Source: Mobula hypostoma (taxonomy: Eukaryota). Taken from it: a stretch of 64,000 bases of DNA. Location: assembly GCF_963921235.1 (NCBI RefSeq), contig NC_086097.1, positions 140,926,001-140,990,000 of the forward strand, given 5' to 3'. A program made the position numbers and the translations under genes. Position 1 is the first letter of the stretch; each line of letters opens with the position of its first letter. A model generated the notes under the pieces. The model was not told the origin of the DNA. It saw nothing but the letters and a program-made list of their open reading frames with translations, and made no database searches. Positions 5,000 through 59,295 of the stretch are shown here, piece by piece.

Positions 5000-6006
5000 T
5001 CAGTAGGTTCACCTTTGGCAGCAACTACAGCCTTGAGTTTGTGTGGATAGGTGTCTATCAGCTTTGCACATTTGGACACTGCAATCTTTCCTCATTTTTC
5101 TTTCCTGAACTGCTCAAGCTTTCAGATTGCATGGGGATTGTAAGTGAACAGACCTTTTCAAGTCCAGCCACAAATACTCAATTGGATTGAGGTTTGGACT
5201 CTGACTTGGCCACTCCAGGACATTATCTTTGTTGACCTTAGGCAATTCCTTTGTAGCTTTCGCTTTATGTTTGGGGTCATTGTCTTGCTGGAAAACAAGT
5301 CTTCTCCTAAGCTGCAGTTTTCTTGCAGACTGCATCAGGGTTTTCTCCAAGATTTCCATGTATTTTGCTGCATTCATTTTACCCACTAGCTTCACAAGCC
5401 TTCCAGAGCCTGCTGCAGTGAAGCACCTCCACAGCATGATGCAGCCACCACCATGCTTCATGGCAGGGATAGTGTTTTGATTATGTGTAGTGCTTAGCTT
5501 ACACCAAACATAGCATTTATTCTGATGGCCAAAAAGCTCAACTTTGGTTTCATCAGACCACAGAACCTTCTTCCAGGCAACTTCAGAGTCTCCCAGATGC
5601 CTTCTCGCAAACTCTAGCCGAGATTTCCTGTGAGTTTTTTCCCAACAATACCTTTCTCTTTGCCACTCTCTCATAAAGCTGTCACACATGAAACATCCAT
5701 GCAACAGTTGTTGTATGTGCAGTGTCTCCCATCTAAGTCACTGAAGCTTGTAACCGCTCCACAGTTGTCATAGGTATTTTAGTAGCCTCTCTCACGTCCC
5801 GTTCTTGCATGGTCACTCAGTTTTTGAGGACGGCCTGCTCTAGGCAGAGTTACAGCTGTGCCATATTCTTTCTGTTACTTGATGATTGACTTAACTGTGC
5901 TCCAAGGGATATTCAGTGACTTGGAAATTCTCAAATATCCATCTCCTGACATATGCTTTTCAATAACCTTTACACAGAGTTATTTGGAGTGTTCTTTTGT
6001 CTTCAT
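5000..6006 (-). pseudogene. Tc1 DD34E transposase pseudogene
   Basis: ATG at 6004-6006 gives MKTKEHSK*..PWSTVKSIIK*..AGRPQK (paired-like HTH, with stops). ORF 5114..5704 has WSDETK, KHGGG, QQDNDPKH and WPSQSPNLNPIE, with 34 residues between the second D and the E. Confidence 0.92.
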
Positions 6007-6123
6007 GGTGTAGATTTTGCCAGGATACTGACCCACCAGCAGCTGGACTTTCTAGATACAGGGGCACTTACTACAATCAATTGAAGCACCTTGTCCGCAC
6101 ACAGGTGATCTCCAGTTAACTAA

Positions 6124-9100
6124 TAGAACATAGAATTTTACAGCACAGTACAGGCTCTTCAGCCCACAATGTTGTGCCGACTCTCAAACCCTGCCTCCCA
6201 TATAACCCCCCACATTAAATTCCTCCATATACCTGTCTAGTAGTCTCTTAAACTACACTAGTGTATCTGCCTCCACGACTGACTCAGGCAATGCATTCCA
6301 CGCACTAACCACTCTCCGAGTAAAAACCCTTCCTCTAATATCCCCCTTGAACTTCCCACCCCTTACCTTAAAGCCATGTTCTCTTGTATTGAGTAGTGGT
6401 GCCCTGGGGAAGAGGCGCTGGCTATCCACTCTATCTATTCCTTTTATTATCTTGTACTCCTCTATCATGTCTCCTCTCATCCTCCTTCTCTTCAAAGAGT
6501 AAAGCCCTAGCTCCCTTAATCTCTGATCATATCCCCATAGTCTCTAAACCAGGCAGCATCCTGGTAAATCTCCTCTGTACCCTTTCCAATGCTTCCACAT
6601 CCTTCCTATAGTGAGGCGACCAGAACTGGACACAGTACTCCAAATGTGGTCTAACCAGAATTTTATAGAGCTGCATCATTACATCGCGACTCTTAAACAA
6701 TTTTCCTCGACTTATGAAAGCTAACACCCCATAAGCTTTCTTAACTACCCTATCCATCTGTGAGGCAAATTTCAGGGACCTGTGGACATGTACCCCCAGG
6801 TCCCTCTGCTCCTCCACACTACCGAGTATCCTGCCATTTACATTGTACTCTGCCTTGGAGTTTGTCCTTCCAAAGTGTACCACCTCACACTTCCCTGGGT
6901 TGAACTCCATCTGCCACTTCTCAGCCCACTTCTCCATCCTACCAATGTCTCTCTGCAATATTTGACAATCCTCTACACTACCTATAACACCACCAACCTT
7001 TGTGTCGTCTGCAAACTTGCCAACCCACCCTTCTACCCCCACATCCAGGTCGGTAATAAAAATCACAAAAAGTAGAGGTCCCAGAATAGATCCTTGTGCG
7101 ACACCACTAGTCACAATCCTCCCATCTGAATGTACTCCCTCCACCACCACCCTCTGCCTTCTGCAGGCAAGCCAACTCTGAATCCACCTGGCCAAACTTC
7201 CCTGGATCCCATGCCTTCTGACTTTCTGAGTAAGCCTACCGTGCGTAACCTTGTCAAATGCCTTACTGAAATCCATATAGATCACATCCACTACACTACC
7301 CTCATCTATATGCCTGGTCACCTCCTCAAAGAACTCTATCAGGCTTGTTAGACACGATCTGCCCTTCACAAAGCTATGCTGACTGTCCCTGATCAGACCA
7401 TGATTCTCTAAATGCCCATAGAGCCTGTCTCTAAGAATCTATTCCAACAGCTTTCCCACCACAAACGAAAGACTTACTGGTCTATAATTACCCGGACTAT
7501 CCCCACTACCTTTGTTGAACAAGGGGACAACATTCGCCTCCCTGCAATCCTCCGGTACCATTCCCGTGGACAACGAGGACATAAAGACCACAACCAGAGG
7601 CTCAGCAATCTCTTCCCTCGCCTCGTGGAGCAGCCTGGGGAATATTCCGTCAGGCCCCTGGGACTTATCCGTCCTAATGTATTTTAACAACTCCAACACC
7701 TCCTCTCCCTTAATATCAACATGCTCCAGAACATCAACCTCACTCATATTGTCCTCACCATCATCAAGTTCCCTCTCATTGGTGAATACTGAAGAGAAGT
7801 ATTCATTGAGGACCTCCCTCACTTCCTCAGCCTCCATGCACATCTACCCACCTTTATCTATAATCGGTCCTACCTTCACTCTTGTCATCCTTCTTTTCTT
7901 CACATAATTGAAGAATGCCTTGGCGTTTTCCTTGACCCTACTCGCCAAGGCCTTCTCATGCCCCCTTCTTGCTATTCTCAGCCCTTTCTTAAGCTCCTTT
8001 CTTGCTTCCCTATATTCCTCAATAGACCCATCTGATCCTTGCTTCCTAAACCTCATGTATGCTGCCTTCTTCCACCTGATTAGATTTTCCACCTCACTTG
8101 TCACCCATGGTTCCTTCACCCTACCATTCTTTATCTTCCTCACCGGGGCAAATTTATCCCTAACATCCTGCAAGAGATCTCTAAACATCGACCACATGTT
8201 CATAGTACATTTCCCTGCAAAAACAGCATCCCAATTCACACCCGCAGGTCCTAGTCTTATAGCCTCATAATTTACCCTTGCCCAATTAAAAAATTTCCTG
8301 TCCTCTCTGATCCTATCCTTTTCCATGATAATGCTAAAGGCCAGGGAGCGGTGGTCACTGTCCCCCAGATGCTCACCCACTGAGAGATCTGTGACCTGAC
8401 CCGGTTCATTACTTAGTACTAGATCTAGTATGGCATTCCCCCTAGTCGGCCTGTCCACATGCTGTGACAGGAATCCGTCCTGGACACACTTAACAAACTC
8501 TTCCGCATCTAAACCCTTGGAACTAATCAGGTGCCAATGAATATTAGGGAAATTAAAGTCACCTATGATAACAACCCTGTTATTTTTGCACCTTTCCAAA
8601 ATCTGCCCCCCAATCTGCTCCTCTGTATCTCTGCTGCTACCAGGGGGCCTATAGAATACCCCCAATAGTGTAACTGCTCCTTTGCTGTTCCTGACTTCCA
8701 CACATACTGACTCAAAAGAGGAACCTGCTACATTACCCACCCTTTCTGTAGCTGTAATAGTATCCCTGACCAGTAATGCTACCCCCCTCCCCCTTTTCCG
8801 CCCTCCCTATTCCTGTTAACGCACTGAAATCCAGGAATACTGTGAATCCATTCCTGCCCTGGTGTTATCCAAGTCTCTGTAATGGCCCCTACATCATAAT
8901 TCCATGTATGTATCCAAGCTCTCAGTTCATCACCTTTGTTTCTAATGCTTCTTGCATTGAGGTACACACATTTCAGCCCTTCTACCTTACTGTCTTTACA
9001 CCGTTTATTCTGCTTCTCTTTCCTCAAAGCCTCTCTACATGTTAGATCTGGCTTTACTCCATGCACTTCTTTCAGTGCTCTATCGCTCTGGGTCCCATCC

Positions 9101-10291
9101 CCCTCGCAAATTAGTTTAAACCCTCCGAGCCATGCCAGCGAACCTACCTGCAAGGATATTGCTCCCCTCGAGTTCAGGTGCAAACCATCCAATCTGTACA
9201 GGTCCCACCTTCCCCAGAAGAGATCCCAATGATCCAGAAATCTAAAAGCCTGCTCCCTGCACCAACTCCCCAGCCACGCATTCAACTGCCATCTCCTCCA
9301 ATTCTTACCATCACTGTCACGTAACACTGGCAGCAATCCTGAGAACGCCACCCTTGTGGTCCTGTTCTTCAACCTTCTGCCTAGTTCCCGAAACTCGCAC
9401 TTCAGGACCTCATCCCTCTTCCTGCCTACGTCGTTGGTCCCAACATGTATCCCGACTTCTGTTTGCTTTCCCTCTCGTACCAGGATGTCGTGCACCCGGT
9501 CAGAGACATCCCGGACCCTGGCACCTGGGAGGGAACAAACCATGCGGGTGCCCTTCTCACGTCCACAAAATCTCCTGTCTGCTCCCCTGACTATAGAGTC
9601 TCCAATAACGACAGCTCTCCTCTTCTCCGTCCCACGCTTCTGCACCACCGGGTTAGACTCAGTGCCAGAGGCCCTGCCACTCTGGCTCACACCTGGTCGG
9701 TCGTCCCCGCCAACGGTATCCAGGATGGTAAACTTATTATTCAGGGGAATTGCTACAGGGGTGCTCTGCACTACCTGTCTGCTCACCTTCGCTTTCCCCC
9801 CTCTGACTTTCACCCAACGACCGGCTTCCGACAGCCCAGGTGTGACTACCACCCTGTAGCTCTCATCTATGACTGCCTCATTCTCCCTTATGAGTCGAAG
9901 GTTATCCAGCTGCTGCTCCAGATTCCTGACACGGTTTTCCAGATCGCCCAGCCGTATGCACTTCTGGCAGATGTGACTTTGCGGGAGAGGGGAGTTCCAC
10001 CAAGACTGCCACATCTCACATGAGAGGCACATCACCGTCTCAGGAGACATTGTAAAGACTCACTGCGAGCAAGCTTGTCCTCCGCCTCTTCTCGTCGAAG
10101 CCTGTCGAGTCAAAGCCTTAAAGCTCCACGCCTTCACTGGCCGCTTTCCACAGGCCGCTTCGCTTGAGCTATCCCTCTATTTATCTGTTTGAGCTTTTCA
10201 AAATGCTTGGTCACCTGCCCAATCAGCTGCTTTCTGCTGAGTCTGAGCTATTCAAATCTTGATTGTCTAATCAACAGCTTTCTGCTGATCT
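6124..10291 (-). mobile_element. Essentially full-length CR1 LINE (about 4.2 kb: 5' UTR, ORF1, ORF2, 3' tail) with several stops and frameshifts
   Basis: ORF1 starts at 10050. ORF2 pieces 7844..8740, 7439..7843, 6527..7369 and 6253..6495 cover the APE endonuclease (YRPP, GDFN, LDLV, SDH) and the RT. The tail ttctatgttctat is at 6124-6135, and the Tc1 host sequence resumes on both sides. Confidence 0.95.
9111..10050 (-). pseudogene. CR1 ORF1: N-terminal Cys/His zinc finger, coiled coil and SGNH/GDSL esterase domain
   Basis: CLSC..HICQKC, LENRVRNLEQQLDNL, VVIGDSIVRG, HVGTND and DGLHLN. Two single-G deletions relative to the 20.5-kb copy shift the last codons into the ORF2 frame, which explains the 423-aa ORF call. 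Esterase-bearing ORF1 proteins are known in the CR1/L2 clades. Confidence 0.88.
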
Positions 10292-10859
10292 ATTATGTGA
10301 CTTCTTAAACCAATTGTCTCTACCAGTGACGATTTGGGGTGTCATATTAAAGGGGGTGAATACTTATACAATCAATTATTTTGTGGCTTATATTTGTAAT
10401 TAATTTAGATCACTTTGTCGAGATCTGTTTTCTCTTTGACATAAAATATCAGAAAGTATGGTGATAGAGAGAACGGGTTCCTTTGATGGAGAAGTAGGGA
10501 ATGTAGAGTGAAGCTGACTGGCAAGAGAACCAAAAATGACACAAGAGCCAAGAGTTGCTGGAAATCTGGAACAACACGCAAAAAAGCTGGAGGAACACAG
10601 CAGGTCAGACAGTGTCTACGGAGGGTACCCTCCAGCTTTTTATATGTTTCTTTAAAAAATGTTTCCAAGCTGCTTCTGATGTCATGAGTAGTGAGCAGCA
10701 ACAGGATAGGTCATATGAGGGAATGATGCAATTATTGCGATCATTTCCAAGGTCATGCACAAGTGCGACACGTTGTAGATAAAGCAAGGTGGGACCAACA
10801 TTCTTATTGGGAAGTTTGCTAGCCCTGTTAGAAAATTTTAAACTCAGCTAGCCAGGAAA

Positions 10860-20292: not shown

Positions 20293-23200
20293 GGATTGCT
20301 GCCAGTGCTACGTGACAGAGATGGTAAGAATTGGAGGAGATGGCAGTTGAATGCGTGGCTGAGGAGTTGGTGCAGGGAGCAGGGTTTTAGATTTTTAGAT
20401 CATTGGGATCTCTTCTGGAGAAGGTGGGACCTGTACAGATTGGATGGGTTGCACCTGAACTCTAGGGGGAGCAATATCCTTGCAGGTAGGTTTGCTAGCA
20501 TGGTTCGGGAGGGTTTAAACTAATTTGCGAGGGGGATGGGACCCAGAGCGATAGAGCAGTGAAAGAAGTGCATGGAGTAAAGCCAGATCTAACAGAGAGG
20601 CTTTGAGGAAAGAGAAGCAGAATAAACGGTGTAAAGACAGTAAGGTAGAGTGCTGGAATGTGTGTACCTCAATGCAAGAAGCAGCAGGAACAAAGGTGAT
20701 GAACTGAGAGCTTGGATACATACATGGAATTATGATGTAGTGGCCATTACAGAGACTTGGCTGGCACCAGGGCAGGAATGGATTCTCAATATTCCTGGAT
20801 TTCAGTGCTTTAAAAGGGATAGAGAGGGCGGAAAAAGGGGAGGAGGGGTGGCATTACTGGTCAGGGATACTATTACAGCTACAAAAAGGGTGGGTAATGT
20901 AGCGGGATCCTCCCTTGAGTCAATATGGGTGGAAGTCAGGAACAGGAAGGGAGCAGTTACTCTACTGGGGGTATTCTATAGGCCCCCTGGTAGCAGCAGA
21001 GATACAGAGGAGCAGATTGGGAGGCAGATTTTGGAAAGGTGCTAAAATAACAGGGTTGTTATCATGGGTGTCTTTAACTTCCCTAATATTGATTGGCACC
21101 TGATTAGTTCCAAGGGTTTAGATGGGGCAGAATTTGTTAAGTGTGTCCAGGATGGATTCCTGTCACAGTATGTGGAATGCCATACTAGATCTAGTACTAG
21201 GTAATGAACCGGGTCAGGTCACAGATCTCTCAGTGGGTGAGCATCTGGGGGACAGTGACCACCGCTTCCTGGCCTTTATAATTACCATGGAAAACGATAG
21301 AATTAAAGAGGACAGGAAAATTTTTAATTGGGGAAAGGCAAATTATGAGACTATAAGGCTAGAACTTGCGGGAATTGGAATGATGTTTTTGCGGGGAAAT
21401 GTACTATGGACATGTGGTCAATGTTTAGAGATCTCTTGCAGGATGTAAGGGATAAATTTGTCCCCGTGAGGAAGATAAAGAATGGTAGGGTGAAGGAACC
21501 ATGGGTAACAAGTGAGGTGGAAAATCTAATCAGGAGGAAGAAGGCAGCATACATGAGGTTTAGGAAGCATGGATCAGCTGGGTCTATTGAGGAATATAGG
21601 GAAGCAAGAAAGGAGCTTAAGAAGGGGCTGAGAAGAGCAAGAGGGGGCATGAGAAGGCCTTGGCGAGTAGTGTAAAGGAAAACTCCAAGGCATTCTTCAA
21701 TTATGTGAAGAAAAAAAGGATGAGAGGAGTGAAGGTAGGGCCGATTAGAGATAAAGGTGGGAAGATGTTCCTGGAGGCTGTGGAAGTGAGCGAGGTCCTC
21801 AATGAATACTTCTCTTCGGTATTCACCAATGAGAGGGAACTTGATGATGGTGAGGACAATATGAATTAGTTTGATGTTCTGGAGCATGCTGATATTAAGG
21901 GAGAGGAGGTGTTGGAGTTAGTGTAGGACAGATAAGTCCCCGGGGCCTGACGGAATATTCCCCAGGCTGCTCCACGAGGCGAGAGAAGAGATTGTTGAGC
22001 CTCTGGCTAGGATCTTTATGTCCTCGTTGTCCACGGGAATGGTACTGGAGGATTGGAGGGAGGCGAATGTTGTTCCCTTGTTCAAAAAACGTAGTACGGA
22101 TAGTCCCGGTAATTATAGTCCAGTGAGCCTTACGTCTGTGGTGGGAAAGCTGTTGGAAAAGATTCTTAGAGATAGGATCTACAGGCATTTAGAGAATCAT
22201 GGTCTGATCAGGGACAGTCAGCATGGCTTTGTGAAGGGCAGATCGTGTCTAACAAGCCTGATAGAGTTCTTTCAGGCGGTGACCAGGGATATAGATTAGG
22301 GTAGTGCAATAAGTGTGATCTATTTGGATTTTAGTAAGGCATTTCACAAGGTTCCACACGGTAGGCTTATTCAGAAAGTTAGAAGGCATGGGATCCAGGG
22401 AAGTTTGGCCAGGTGGATTCAGAATTGGCTTGCCTGCTGAAGGCAGAGGGTGGTGGTGGAGGGAGTACATTCAGATTGGAGGATTGTGACTAGTGGTGTC
22501 CCACAAGGATCTGTTCTGGGACCACTACTTTTCGTGATTTTCGTGACCTGGAAGTGGGGGTAGAAGGGTGGGTTGGCAAGTTTGCAGATGACACAAAGGT
22601 TGGTGGTGTTGTGGATACTGTAGAGGATTGTCAAAAATTGCAGAGAGACATTGATAGGATGCAGAAGTGGGCTGAGAAGTGGCAGATGGAGTTCAACCCA
22701 GAGAAGTGTGAGGTGGTACACTTTGGAAGGACAAACTCCAAGGCAGAGTACAAAGTAAATGGCAGGATACTTGGTAGTGTGGAGGAGCAGAGGGATCTCA
22801 GGGTACATGTCCACAGATCCCTGGAAGTTGCCTCACAGGTGGATAAGGTAGTTAAGAAAGCTTATGGGGTGTTAGCTTTCATAAGTCGAGGGATAGACTT
22901 TAAGAGTCGCGATGTAATGATGCAGCTCTATAAAACTTTGGTTAGGCCACACTTGGAGTATTGTGTCCAGTTCTGGTCACCTCACTATAGGAAGGATGTG
23001 GAAGCATTGGAAAGCGTACAGAGGAGATTTACCAGGATGCTGCCTGGTTTAGAAAGTATGCATTATGATCAGAGATTAAGGGAGCTAGGGCTTTACTCTT
23101 TGGTGAGAAGGAGGGTGAGAGGAGACATGATATAGGTGTACAAGATAATAAGAGGAATAGATAGAGTGGATAGCCAGCGCCTCTTCCCCAGGGCACCACT

Positions 23201-37714: not shown

Positions 37715-40700
37715 GAAACATAGAAACCTAGAAAGCCTACAATGCAGGCCCTTCGGCCCACAAAGTTGTGCCGAACATGTACTTACTTTAGAAATTACCT
37801 AGGGTTACACATAGCCCTCTATTTTTCTAAGCTCCATTTACCTATCCAAGAGTCTCTTAAAATACCCTATCGTATCCTCCTCCAGCACCGTCGCCGGCAG
37901 CTCATTCCACGCACTCACTACTCTCTGCGTAAAAAGCTTAACCCAGACATCTCCTCTGTACCTACGTCCAAGCACCGTAAACTGTGCCCTCTCGTGTTAG
38001 CCATTTCAGCCCTGGGAAAAAGACTCTGACTATACACATGATCAACGCCTCTCAGCATATTATACACCTCTATCAGGTCACCTCTCAACCTCCTTCGCTC
38101 CGAGGAGAAAAGTCCAAGTTCACACAACCTATTCTCATAAAGCATGCTCCCCAATCCAGGCAACATTCTTGTGAATCCCCTCTGCACCCTTTCTGTGGTT
38201 TCCATATTCTTCCTGTAGTGAGGCGACCAGAACTGAGCACAATACTCCAGGTAGGGTCTGACCGGGGTCCTATATAGATGCAACATTACCTCTCGGCTCC
38301 TAAACTCAATACCACGATTAATGAAGGTCATGCACCGTATGCTTTCTTAACCACAGAGTCAGCCTGTGTAGCAACTTTGAGTGTCTTATGGATTCTGACC
38401 CCAAATCCTTCTGATCCTCCACACTGATAAGAGTCTCGTCATTAATACTATATTCTGCCTTCATATTCGACCTACCAAAATAAACCACCTCACACTTATC
38501 TGGATTGAACTCCATCTGCCACTTCTCAGCCCAGTTTTGCATCCTATCGATATCCTGCTGCAACCTCTGACAGCCCTCCACACTATCCACACACCCCCAA
38601 CCTTTGTGTCTTCAGGAAATTTACTAACTCATCCCTCCACTTTATCATCCAGGTCATTTATAAAAATCACGAAGAGTAAGGGTCCCAGAACAGATCCCTG
38701 AGGCACACCACTGGTCACCGACCTCCATGCACAATATGACCCGTCTACAACCAATCTTTGCCTTTTGTGGGCAAACCAGTTCTGAATCCACAAAGCAATG
38801 TCCCTTTGGATCTAATGCCTCTTTACTTTCTCAATAAGCCTGACACGGGGTACCTTAACAAATGTCTTGCTGAAATGCATATACACTTCATCTACTGCTC
38901 TACATTCATCAATGTGTTTAGTCACATCCTCAGACAATTCAATCAGGCTTGTAAGGCACGACCGGCCTTTGATAAAGGCATGCTGACTATTCCTAATCAT
39001 ATTAATTCACTCCAAATGTTCATGAATTCTGCCTCTCAGGATCTTTTCCATCAACTTACCAACCACTGAAGTAGGTTTGACTGGTCTATCATTTCTGGGC
39101 TATCTCTACCCCCTTTCTTGAAAAAGGGAACAATATCTGCAACCCTCCAATCCTCTGGAACCTGACCGTCCTCAATGATGATGCAAATATCATCACCAGA
39201 GGCTCAGCAATCTTCTCTCTCGCCTCCCACAGTAGCCTGGGGTACATCTCGTCCAGTCCTTTGACTTACCCAACTTGATGCTTTCTAAAAGCTCCAGCAC
39301 AGCCTCTTTCTTAATATCTATATGCTCAGGCTTTTCACTCCGCTGTAAGTCATCCCTACAATCACCAAGATTCTTTTCCGTAGTGAAAACTGCAGCAAAT
39401 TATTCATTAAATGCCTCTGCTATCTACTCCGGTTCCATGCACACTTTTCTACTGTCACACTTGATTGGTCCTATTCTCTCACGTCTTATCCTCTTGCTCT
39501 TCAGATACTTGTGGAATGCCCTGGGGTTTTCCTTAACCCTGTTCGCCAAGGCATTCTCATAGCCTCTTCTGGCTCTCCTAATTACATTCTTAAGCTCCTT
39601 CGTGCTAGCCTTATAACCTTCAAGATCTCCTTCATTACCTAGTCTTTTGAACCTTTTGTAAGCTCATGTTTTCTTCTTGATTAGATTTAAAACAGCTTTT
39701 ATACACCACGGGTCCTGTACCCTACCATCCTTTCCCTGTCTCATTGGAACGTACCTATGCAGAACTCCACACAAATAGCCCCTGAACATTTGCCACATTT
39801 CTGCCGTACAATTCCCTGAGAACACCGGTTCCCAATTTATGCTTCTAAGTTGCTGCCTTGTAGCCTCATATTACTCCTTACTCCAATTAAGTGCTCTCCT
39901 AACTTGTCAGTTCCTATCCCTCTCCAATGCTATGGTAAAGCATATAGAATTGTGATCACTATTTCCAAAATGCTCTGCTACTGAGAGATCTGACATCTGA
40001 CCAGGTTCATTTCCCAATACCAGATCAAGTAAAGACTCTCCTCTGGTAGGCTTTTCTGCATATTGTGCCAAGAAACCTTCCTGAACATACCTAACAAATT
40101 CCACGCCATCTAAACCCCTTGCTCTGGGGCGATACCAATCAACATTTGGGAAATTAAAATCTCCCACCAAGACAACCCTGTTATTATTAGACCTTTCCAG
40201 AATCTGTTTCTCTATCTGCTTCTCGATGTCCCTGTTATTATTGGGTGGACTATAAAAAACACCCAGGAGAGTAATTGACCCCTTTTTGTTCCTAACCTCC
40301 ACCCACAGAGACTTCGTAGACAATCCTTCCGTGATTTCCTCCTTTTTACAGCCGTGACACTATCTCTGATCAGCAGTGCCACGCACCCACCACTTTTGCC
40401 TCCCTGCCTGTCCTTTCTGAAACTTCTAAAGCCTGGCACTTGAAGTAACCATTCCTGACCCTGAGCCATCCAAGTCTCTGTAATGGCCGCACATCATAGT
40501 TCTAAGAACTGATCCTCACTCTAAGTTGGATGCTCTTTGTTCATAATACTCCTTGTATTAAAATATTCACATCTCAATCCATCGGTCTGAGCGCGTCCCT
40601 TTTCTATCACCTGCCTATCCTCCCTCACGCACTGTCTATCATCTTCCTCTATTTGTGAGCCAACCGCCTCTTCCTCCGTCTCTTCAGTTCGGTTCCCACC

Positions 40701-41790
40701 CCCAGAAAATCTAGTTTAGACTCACCCCAATAGCTGTAGCAAACTTCCCCGCCAGGATATTGGTCCCCCTCGGATTCAAGTGCAACCTGCCTTTTTCGTA
40801 CAGGTCACACCTGCCCCAAAGGAGGTCCTAATGATCCAATAATCTGAATCGCTGCCCCCTGCTCCATTCCCTCAGCCACGCATTTGTCCTCCACCTCATT
40901 CTATTCCTATACTCACTGTCACGTGGCACACAGTAATTCAGAGATTACTACCTTTGAGATCCTGCTTCTAAACTTTCTTCCTAACTCCCTGTGCTCTGTT
41001 TTCAGGACCTCCTCCCTTTTCCTACCTAGGTCGTTGGTACCAGGATGTACCACGACCTCTGGCTGTTCTCCTTCCCACTTCAGGACATCGTAGGTGCGAT
41101 CAGAAACATCCCGGACCCTGACAACCTGGGAGGCAAACTACCATTCGTTTTTTTTTCTTGCGTCCGCAGAATCGCCTGTCTGACCCCCTAACTATAGAGT
41201 CCCCTATTACTGCTGTCATCCTCTTGCTTTTCCTACACTTGTGAGCTTCGGGGCCAGATTCTGTGCCAGAGGCACGGCCACTGTTGCTTCCGCCAGGCAG
41301 ACCGTCCCCTCCAACAGTACTCAAGCAGGAGTACTAATTGGTAAGGGGGACAGCCACACGGGGTACTCTCTCGCAGCAGACTCTTGCCTTCCCTCCCCTG
41401 ACTGTCACCCACTTATCTGTCTTCCGAGGCCCCGGTGGGACTACTTGCCTATAACTCCTATCTATCACCTCCTCACTCTCCCTGACCAGAGGGATGTCGT
41501 CGAGCTGCAGCTCCCGTTCCCTAAGGAGCTGCAGTTCGACGCACTTGGCGCAGATGTGGCCATCCGGAAGACTGGGAGTCTCCAGGACTTCCCACATCTA
41601 ACACCAAGCACAGGAAACCGGCCTCTCACTCTTACCTCTTGTCTGTCTGTACAAGCACCGAACCTCGCCTCGGTCAGTTATCGCCGAAGCCCCGTTGAAC
41701 CAAAGCCCTCCTACTCTGTTTCCCTCTACTCCGTTGCCCGCTCCTCAGACACCCGCTCTACACAGCTGTCTCCTTTAAACTCATTTTGCT
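37715..41790 (-). mobile_element. Near full-length decayed CR1 LINE (subfamily of 1240-3471 and 10860-11627)
   Basis: Minus-strand ORF fragments: zinc finger (MWEVLET..HICAKCVELQLL), esterase (VIGDSIVRG), APE (GDFNFPN, LDLVL, SDH) and RT, with the tail at about 37715. Confidence 0.9.
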
Positions 41791-56547: not shown

Positions 56548-56972
56548 ATGTGGCAGGGTCCCTGGTTCGTGGTGCTGATTTTCAGCTGTGCGTTACCAAC
56601 ACCTCTTCAACTTTTATCGCTCCTTGCCGCCACGCAGATTCTTTAACCGTTTTCTGCTCTTTTTGCAGGTCGAAGTGTGGCTCAGACCCTGACCCAGCCT
56701 AAAGCATCGATTACGGTACCTGCCGGGAAAACTGCGCGAATACGGTGTCAAGTGCATGGAGGCTCTGTCAGCAGCAGTTCTCCCCTTCACTGGTACCAAC
56801 AGAAACCCGGCAAGCCTCCTCAAAGGATACTCTATTTTGGAGGTGATGTAAAGCGGGATCCGGAATTCGGGATATCCTTCAACGCGGGAAAGTCGACTGA
56901 TTCCGAGTTCTATCTCACAATCGAAGTTAGCACTGAAAGCGCTGCCACCTATTACTGCGCCTACTGGGTTTA
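56548..56972 (+). CDS. TRGV: T-cell receptor gamma V segment, subgroup a (paralog of 16408), apparently functional
   Basis: Leader exon 56548-56587, intron, V exon 56669-56972. Spliced: MWQGPWFVVLIFSCRSVA-QTLTQPKASIT..RCQV..LHWYQQKPGKP..YYCAYWV. Confidence 0.9.
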
Positions 56973-57010
56973 CACAGTATGTAATAGAAGGCAAACTCCG
57001 CACAAAAAGC
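56973..57010 (+). other. RSS, 23-type with a 22-nt spacer
   Basis: CACAGTA (56973-56979), 22 nt, ACAAAAAGC (57002-57010). Confidence 0.88.
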
Positions 57011-59295
57011 TCGACGAACAGCCAAGTCAACGGGAACCGTTGATCCGGAGGCTGCAGCGACCTCCAGCTAAACTTGCGCTTACCCATATCTGCCGGGCAG
57101 GAGTTCGGGTCTGCGCAAGTGGTCTGCGCATCAGCACGTTCGCAATTCCTTTAGAAAGGTGGGCAGTTTTCCGCTTTAGGGACGAGGCGCAGCCATGGTG
57201 TTCCCATTCCTCGGTCGCCCCCTGTGGAATGTTAGGTAAGAGATTCTGTCACCAGAAACACGGCGCGTGGCCTGGCCGATGGTGCGGTAGGGGGGTTGGC
57301 TTTTCCCATCTCCGGGAGATACTGAATACAGCAAATGCTTTGAGACAAGACAACATCCTGACTTCCGTAATGAACCCCTGTGGTGAAGAAGCGGCTTTGT
57401 CTTTAGTCAAGTTGCTTTCATACAGTTATAACATTGACCCATTAGGTGGAAAATTACGTGCCACGAGAACCTAGCGGTTAGCACGACGCTATGCCAACTC
57501 AGGGAGAGTTTGGAGTTCAGTTCTGGCGCTGCCTGTAAGGACCCTCTGTGGTTCATCTCCGTGGAATGCATGGATTTTCCCCGGGTACTCCGGTTTTCTC
57601 TCACGGTCGAGTAGGTTGACAGATGATTGCCAATTGTCAGGGTTATGTTATGTTAGGGTTAATCGAAGCTGTCAGGGGTTCCTGCCGCTGCGTGACTTGA
57701 AGGGCCGGACGGGCCTCATCTGCACTATATCGCTAAATAAACAAATAAAATTGCCTAGTGATGTCCTGGTGATGTAAAGCCTGGCAAATCCAATCTGGCT
57801 ATTTATAACACAAAACAGGGACCAAAGAAATGAGCTCTAGGGACTGTTTTTGATAACAGGACAGTAGTTGGTTTACTTCAGTTCACAGGAATCCTGAAAA
57901 AAACTCAAGTCAATGGGCATTAAGTGAAGAACTGAAATAATAAATCGCTGAAAGGACAGTGGTTGGAAGTCTTTTCCTAGACGTGTACATTTTCAGTTGA
58001 TTCATTAATAAACTTTCTACATTATCACACGTGTACAGACAATGCCAATGTCCAAACAAGTGTTTCCAATTAACCACTCTTGATATTCAATGACTGAAAA
58101 TACAACTGGGCCAGTCACACAAACACTGAGACAACACGTATGGCCGCAGGAAATAAATCTCAGGGTTGCATGTGGTGTCTCTGATAATAAATTTTACTTT
58201 GCACTTTGAGCTTTGAATGTGGCTGGGTATTCTGGGTCAAACAACACATTTCAAATACTTTCCTTTGTCTGTAAAGCAAATTAGGGGTGTTATGACGTAC
58301 TTTCCATTTAGATGAATGAGTTTTCCTAAAAGAACTTTAATGAAGCTCAACGCCATCCAAAACAAAGCAGTTCCTTTTATTAACAACAACCACCTGCTCC
58401 GAAGATTCATTCTTGTGACCACAGAATATTTGTGACACACTGAATATTTGTAAACATCCAGGCTACTAATTGCACTGCAATTACTTACCCAGGTTCCTCT
58501 GACAGCACCTCTCAAACTCACAGTCTACCACCAAGAAAGATTAAGGCAGCTATAACTACTGTTACGATTCACATATCTTATATGTTGTGCCATGGTTAAA
58601 GGTGTCTAGGACTATTTTCACATATAATTTGAAGATTGCCTCACCAAAGAGTGGGGCGGCATGGTAGCACTGGGTTCATTTCCCGCCGCTGCCTGGAAGG
58701 AGTTTGCACTTTCTATCCGTTCGCTCGGTTGCTCTGGTTTCCGCCCACATTGCAAAGACGTGCCGGTTGGTAGGTTAATTGGTCACTGTAAATTATCCCG
58801 TGACTAGTATAGGATCAAATCGGAGATTGCGCGAAGTGCCGGAAAGGCCGATTCAGCGCTGTATCACAACAAATAAAAAAGGAGAGCAGGGACGCTTGAT
58901 CTCCTGCTGGAAAACTTGCCAAAGCAAGTTACTGCTGGAGGATGGCGGGAAACATTGTAATCACTAACTCTTTGTGTTTATATGATTTTGGAAAAAGATA
59001 GGATTGACCATTAAGTTAAAGTACTAGAAAGGCTAATTTTGAAAGCATTCGACAGGATTCTGCAAAAGTTGATTGTGAGAAGCTGTTTTACTGGTATGGG
59101 AAGTGACAGGCGTCTGAATGTGTGATAGGAGGGTTCGGGGACAGCATTATACCATAAGGCATAGGAGCAGAATTAGGCCATTTGGCCCATCGTGACTGCT
59201 CTACTATCCATCATCGTTGATTTTTTAACCACTCTCAATGGCATTTGCTGACCACCCCGTAACCTTTGATGCCCTTATTAATAAAGAGCCTCTTC

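Follow-up and report, generated by a model that had tools for sequence, protein, structure and literature searches.

A 64,000-nucleotide stretch of the genome of Mobula hypostoma (contig NC_086097.1, positions 140,926,001 to 140,990,000; hereafter the window) contains a near full-length copy of CR1, a long interspersed element (LINE) with two open reading frames (ORFs). ORF1 codes for an esterase, and ORF2 for an endonuclease (EN) and a reverse transcriptase (RT). In the family to which this copy belongs, ORF1 ends with the heptamer TTTAAAC directly followed by a stop codon, and ORF2 lies in the -1 frame. The heptamer, its phase, the adjacent stop codon, the -1 position of ORF2, the open linker that precedes the endonuclease and a run of five Gs downstream are conserved across CR1 lineages at the nucleotide level. 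These features suggest that the ORF1/ORF2 junction of esterase-type CR1 elements is probably a site of programmed -1 ribosomal frameshifting at U_UUA_AAC, which would yield an ORF1-linker-EN-RT fusion.

The CR1 copy in the window and its ORF1/ORF2 junction

The junction, the copy that carries it and two further junctions in the window have the following features.

9114..9120, minus strand: heptamer T TTA AAC, X XXY YYZ in the family ORF1 frame; predicted slip site
9111..9113, minus strand: TAA that ends ORF1, adjoining the heptamer
9099..9103, minus strand: GGGGG, separated from the heptamer by 10 nt; 3' stimulator candidate
8965..9120, minus strand: linker of 156 nt, open in the -1 frame only, no in-frame ATG
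9111..10050, minus strand: ORF1, with N-terminal Cys pairs and an SGNH/GDSL esterase (PF13472, E = 2.4e-12, from the translation); family end ...REGLN-stop
7844..8964, minus strand: APE endonuclease region of ORF2 and following sequence (PF03372/PF14529), broken by a 1-nt deletion after 8786
6527..7438, minus strand: reverse transcriptase part of ORF2 (PF00078, E = 6.6e-23)
6123..10292, minus strand: near full-length, decayed CR1 LINE copy inside a DDE transposon; ends approximate, the 5' edge being where other copies begin to align
20514..20535, plus strand: second copy of the same family, with heptamer, TAA and GGGGG intact
40699..40720, minus strand: junction of a second CR1 family (67% DNA identity), with the heptamer decayed to TCTAAAC, then TAG and the G run

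The copy was assigned to the esterase-type CR1 elements by its APE and RT domains in ORF2 (PF03372, PF14529 and PF00078), the Cys pairs and SGNH esterase in ORF1, and its 3' repeats. CR1 LINEs end in short tandem repeats without poly(A); this copy ends in short ATTCTATG/TTCTAT repeats, and poly(A) is absent. The Cys pairs are visible in a protein alignment of ORF1 (A1). Homologues of ORF1 occur in turtles and birds, and its nearest named relatives are ray proteins (89% to a Mobula entry).

The window copy is dead. Compared with another copy, L023, it lacks one nucleotide after 9168 and one after 9127, and its ORF1 therefore runs straight into the ORF2 frame, forming a decay-fused reading frame of 426 codons (10059-8779). 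The U_UUA_AAC phase is thus a property of the family and not of this copy: in the ORF1 frame of the window family, the commonest codons are TTA (28 of 32 copies), AAC (27 of 32) and TAA (28 of 32). The original prediction, made from the DNA letters, had derived this phase from the ORF1 frame of the 20.5-kb copy; it holds for the family and not for the copy in which the junction was seen. Its reading of TTTAAAC at 9120-9114 (minus strand) with TAA at 9113-9111 directly after it agrees with the sequence. The -1 frame also leads into the APE endonuclease, as had been claimed; it reads FKLICEGDGT... and is free of stops up to the endonuclease (YLN at 8964).

The exact 10-mer, TTTAAAC plus TAA, is present in 27 of 30 copies of the window family. 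Within the 64 kb its frequency is unremarkable (8 matches at one mismatch, 6.3 expected); it is at the scale of the genome that the pattern stands out. In two database gene models, P0025 (ray) and P0108 (turtle), ORF1 is continuous with the endonuclease; P0025 continues past the junction as ...GFKLNL... and is probably a decayed copy like the one in the window.

Conservation of the heptamer

Seventeen lineages were compared: 11 CR1 families from the M. hypostoma genome (3.48 Gb) and six single metagenome loci picked by esterase patterns (L056, L057, L058, L059, L060 and L069). Two of the families came from the window, six were found by protein search and three (F8, F10 and F11) by motif search only. 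The protein searches for the six families end about eight residues before the end of ORF1; F7 additionally includes one motif hit. The motif also served to anchor L058; leaving out F8, F10, F11 and L058 does not change the heptamer and G-run results. For the codon reading and the count of homologue C-termini, we used a profile ending before the motif, with no reference to the heptamer. Between lineages, amino-acid identity averages 0.48 (range 0.18-0.90) and four-fold third positions agree at 0.42. L060 shares 98% identity with a penguin entry, L057 falls among bird proteins, and L059 matches a crane entry best; for L056, L058 and L069 the esterase tree gives no firm placement. This tree, which has long branches for the frameshifted copies L058 and L069, was used only to place L057 and L060 among bird proteins.

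In all 11 CR1 families sampled from the genome, and in tetrapod-type relatives, the esterase ORF1 terminates in TTTAAAC plus a stop. The commonest codons at the ORF1 end are NNT TTA AAC stop in 15 of 16 lineages; in L069 the phase is lost through an upstream indel, and TTTAAAC TGA is still present. The codon preceding Leu encodes seven different residues, with T always at its third base (background 0.21). The corresponding background values are 26 of 184 for TTA and 35 of 81 for AAC. As controls, we asked how often a single codon is kept at other conserved residues: this is the case at none of 12 near-invariant esterase residues and at one of 96 other conserved residues of ORF1 and the endonuclease. 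Genome-wide, in counts that allow a variable gap and include some places twice, the junction motif has 30,815 matches against 163 for the reversed motif, whereas the form with AAT in place of AAC, a change silent in both frames, has 1,321 matches (reversed control, 309). The AAT-form matches listed are scattered over many families, as expected of decay. The single-codon controls and the AAC/AAT counts bear out the expectation that TTTAAAC is kept beyond the need to encode Leu-Asn, and synonymous Leu and Asn codons are not freely used at this position.

At the loci found by protein search, the exact heptamer is present at 108 of 138 esterase ends, with a stop after it at 102. Among 113 homologous proteins that reach the end of the esterase, 96 end in LN; named entries from turtles, lizards, snakes, frogs, alligators and birds are among them. 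In 2 of these 96, no codon for the residue before LN can end in T, compared with 58 of 480 nearby residues. The invariant LN of alignment A1 is no evidence in this respect, because its proteins were chosen for an LN ending.

Reading frame of ORF2 and the linker

The start of the endonuclease could be located in 16 of the 17 lineages. In all 16, the commonest distance between the heptamer and the endonuclease is a multiple of three (99 to 324 nt), and ORF2 is therefore in the -1 frame. Stops shared by the copies of a lineage are absent from this frame in 15 of 16 lineages, the other being F10 (two copies) with one; the +1 frame has 3-12 shared stops, as does frame 0 except in L056 (none). A -1 ORF2 behind an open linker, which had been proposed as a check, thus occurs in every lineage with a located endonuclease, and none of the sequence patterns that the original prediction had named as contrary to it was found.

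Seven of the 16 lineages have no in-frame ATG in the linker before the endonuclease. Upstream of the heptamer, a stop usually closes the -1 frame within 1-8 codons. In the window family, 11 copies are open for at least 185 codons past the site, and nine of these have no Met before codon 186, the endonuclease profile match beginning at residue 54.

A fixed G run downstream of the heptamer

Classical U_UUA_AAC sites need a downstream stem that forms a hairpin or pseudoknot, a stable structure located 5-9 nt downstream. A weak GGG/CCC stem had been noted by eye at the window junction. Folding of 16 copies revealed no conserved 3' stem (mean z of -0.13 for 45 nt and -0.16 for 90 nt; pseudoknots are beyond the method), and the GGG/CCC stem is not conserved; a fixed G run is found instead. 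Positions 18-22 (GGGGG, 10 nt after the heptamer) are all G in the 16 of 16 lineages that have sequence there, and GGGGG starts at only 2 of 4,253 background positions. In single copies, the run is exact in 74 of 108 and has four of its five Gs in 100 of 108. Two of the five Gs occupy third codon positions. Across the genome, 20,067 matches carry GGG and 1,765 carry one of the three synonymous Gly forms; the possibility that the run merely encodes Gly was rejected, as GGG makes up 20,067 of 21,832 matches here and 31 of 111 Gly codons elsewhere. The 3' element thus looks like a fixed G run rather than a stem. A GGGGG placed 10 nt after the heptamer with no conserved stem is the new feature of this junction.

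Two further explanations of the run were discarded. A G-quadruplex is predicted in only 5 of 16 copies with 45 nt and 6 of 16 with 90 nt. Pairing of the run with C-rich CLPG codons about 416 nt upstream ranks between 9 and 425 among approximately 450-730 windows and is never first. As a separate observation, the codons of the C-L-P-G-A-x-V motif, about 416-398 nt upstream of the heptamer (approximately 9536-9518 of the window, minus strand), have unusually fixed silent sites (TGC in 17 of 17, CTC in 14 of 17, GCC in 14 of 17 and GTC in 12 of 16).

Probable programmed frameshifting and alternative explanations

If the junction is a frameshift site, most ribosomes would halt after Leu-Asn and release ORF1p. 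In a minority, tRNA-Leu and tRNA-Asn would slip in tandem from UUA/AAC to UUU/AAA and reading would continue, so that the minority product would be the ORF1-linker-EN-RT fusion protein. In the passages available of PMC5009743, U_UUA_AAC counts among the heptamers at which mammalian ribosomes shift most readily, and a stop codon close to the shift site is also said to matter in pea enation mosaic virus. The pause could be caused by the stop codon next to the heptamer together with the G run 10 nt downstream, although this part of the proposal is weaker. The G run, which forms no conserved fold, may bind a protein.

Besides the lack of a conserved stem, several observations weigh against frameshifting. 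The lineages are related and thus are not independent draws. In an unselected 200 kb, whose copies are old, the exact heptamer is present at only one of five esterase ends. Proteins P0069 and P0071 end in ELN (seen at the protein level only), and no XXXYYYZ is therefore possible in them. Linker length is poorly fixed in old families, being a multiple of three in 14 of 29 copies of F4 and 11 of 20 of F6. An in-frame ATG occurs in the linker of 9 of 16 lineages, at unrelated codons, and family F3 (L196-L225) has, beside the heptamer, a UAAUG stop-start overlap in the ORF2 frame.

The last two points would favor termination-reinitiation, the main alternative, in which ribosomes stop at the ORF1 stop codon and restart nearby on ORF2, at AUG or another codon, without making a fusion. 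Reinitiation is the accepted model for ORF2 of LINEs in the parts of PMC2881922, PMC3894237 and PMC3708506 that could be consulted, and restart in L1 is described as AUG-independent in those of PMC5009743. However, it leaves unexplained the fixed XXXYYYZ heptamer, the fixed -1 frame and a linker of 99-324 nt that is open from the heptamer onward. No start codon position is common to the lineages, and the representatives of F7 and L056 have no ATG, CTG, GTG or ACG in the linker. Stop-start coupling of the SART1 type, with UAAUG, is found in one of 16 lineages (F3) and is absent from the window family. Reinitiation is possible, most of all in F3; as a general account of the junction we consider it unlikely. 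F3, which carries both the heptamer and UAAUG, is a natural test case for frameshifting versus reinitiation.

A second alternative is a dual-coding overlap, in which ORF2 begins a few codons upstream and the fixation of the heptamer reflects only a double protein requirement, for Leu-Asn-stop and for Phe-Lys-Leu. Indeed, neither FKL in the -1 frame nor LN in frame 0 varies, and together they fix most of the seven bases. Yet the last base, free under both codes, remains C, and in F6, F10, L057, L058 and L060 the -1 frame is already closed 1-2 codons upstream, which leaves no room for a start; this explanation is very improbable.

The least credible alternative, which we set aside, is a change of frame in the RNA by polymerase slippage, editing or splicing: there are short T and A runs, and some families read ...TTTGCAG/G, which resembles a splice acceptor, but the AG lacks conservation (position 17 is A in 10 of 16), and, because each genomic copy was reverse-transcribed from RNA, any altered RNA ought to be frequent among the copies, whereas the extra-A form has 38 matches against 20,067, T3A3 is present in 156 of 194 sampled copies and a longer T run with A3 in three. 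Contigs of four sequencing runs offer single-contig joints only, whose filling is unknown; splice-type ends occur at none of the 15 joints listed, and these contigs were used neither for nor against any explanation.

Programmed frameshifting at the heptamer would have several implications. ORF2p would carry the zinc finger and esterase of ORF1, the frameshift would set the ratio of ORF1p to ORF2p, and CR1 ORF2 starts would be mis-annotated at internal methionines. A G-run stimulator without structure would be a new type of frameshift signal, and the signal, only 22 nt long, is suited to direct reporter assay. In a broader and distinctly more tentative proposal, the RT of vertebrate CR1 elements, from cartilaginous fish to birds, might be made within a fusion resembling Gag-Pol. 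Its signal would need no RNA structure (U_UUA_AAC, stop, 7 nt, GGGGG) and would act through a host or element protein bound to the G run. A kind of protein-controlled frameshift hitherto reported from RNA viruses would then have persisted in the most abundant LINE of vertebrates other than mammals, ever since sharks and bony vertebrates diverged.

Distant esterase LINEs and other observations

The heptamer is absent from distant esterase LINEs in metagenome contigs (e.g., L067:2041, L071:990, L072:1099, L074:576, L079:2095, L081:743, L082:894, L098:1999, L108:1932, L119:2072 and others). Both domains could be located at 24 such loci, and at 15 of them ORF1 and the endonuclease share a frame. 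Thirteen of these 15 have one TGA, followed by CTA (6), CCA (5), CCC (1) or ACA (1), and then an open linker of 213-399 nt with no ATG position in common. TGA-CTA is a readthrough context. Judging from these sequences, distant esterase LINEs may reach the same fusion by stop readthrough. No relative was found among viral contigs. Two CR1 ORF1 proteins, P0017 and P0090, are filed under Pseudomonas aeruginosa and Klebsiella pneumoniae and are likely animal DNA in bacterial records.

Elsewhere in the window, an ORF with a DDE_3 domain (5114-5737, minus strand; E = 1.1e-12) adjoins the CR1 copy, and the flank above 10292 continues the same DNA transposon, which we take to be Tc1-like. An ORF with an immunoglobulin V-set domain at 56647-57474 (plus strand; E = 2.6e-09) is probably a host exon.

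Comparison with known systems

CR1 is described as the dominant retrotransposon in most vertebrates in the available text of PMC13343379. Reviews, in the portions accessible, call the translation of LINE ORF2 unsettled, with reinitiation as the default, and +1 frameshifting, reinitiation or readthrough has been suggested for ORF2 of Paramecium elements in similarly partial text. No account of -1 frameshifting in CR1 was found in the passages searched, with an appreciable chance that the older CR1 literature holds a remark. The searched passages of PMC11835228, PMC4255032, PMC2734521, PMC5405496, PMC5006619 and PMC3905857 contain no such description, and the word 'frameshift' has no match in the available text of a 2026 CR1 survey. 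Close counterparts of the elements studied here are the vertebrate CR1s with an esterase ORF1 (type IVB, CR1 subgroup 7; PMC4120745), whose ORF1 with zinc finger/leucine zipper and esterase and whose APE-RT ORF2 are described as in our elements, with no mention of a frameshift in the passages searched.

For an APE-type LINE, -1 frameshifting has a printed precedent: in the available passages of PMC5911963, ORF2 of the two-ORF APE-RT elements TRE5-A and TRE3-A of Dictyostelium is said to require it. These elements differ from CR1 in clade and in ORF1, and the same passages describe neither an esterase nor a signal of stop plus G run. In SART1, for which UAAUG coupling has been demonstrated, and in human L1, for which reinitiation is a proposal, ORF2 translation depends on that of ORF1, as it would in CR1, and UAAUG also occurs in F3; in contrast to them, an AUG at the stop is the exception among CR1 lineages, and the ORF2 frame is open through the ORF1 stop.

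The CR1 heptamer and its phase are identical to those of a coronavirus, infectious bronchitis virus, as given in the accessible part of PMC5009743, and the likeness to retroviral gag-pol would lie in the fusion of a structural gene to a polymerase. CR1 differs from both kinds of site in having no conserved 3' stem, in the stop directly after the heptamer and in being a LINE. With regard to the 3' element, the resemblance is to the protein-stimulated -2/-1 frameshift in PRRSV nsp2, which, in the passages available of PMC4937337, likewise has a short unstructured motif behind a 10-nt spacer. The viral motif is C-rich where that of CR1 is G-rich, and the heptamers differ; the likeness, in motif and spacing, is one of analogy only.
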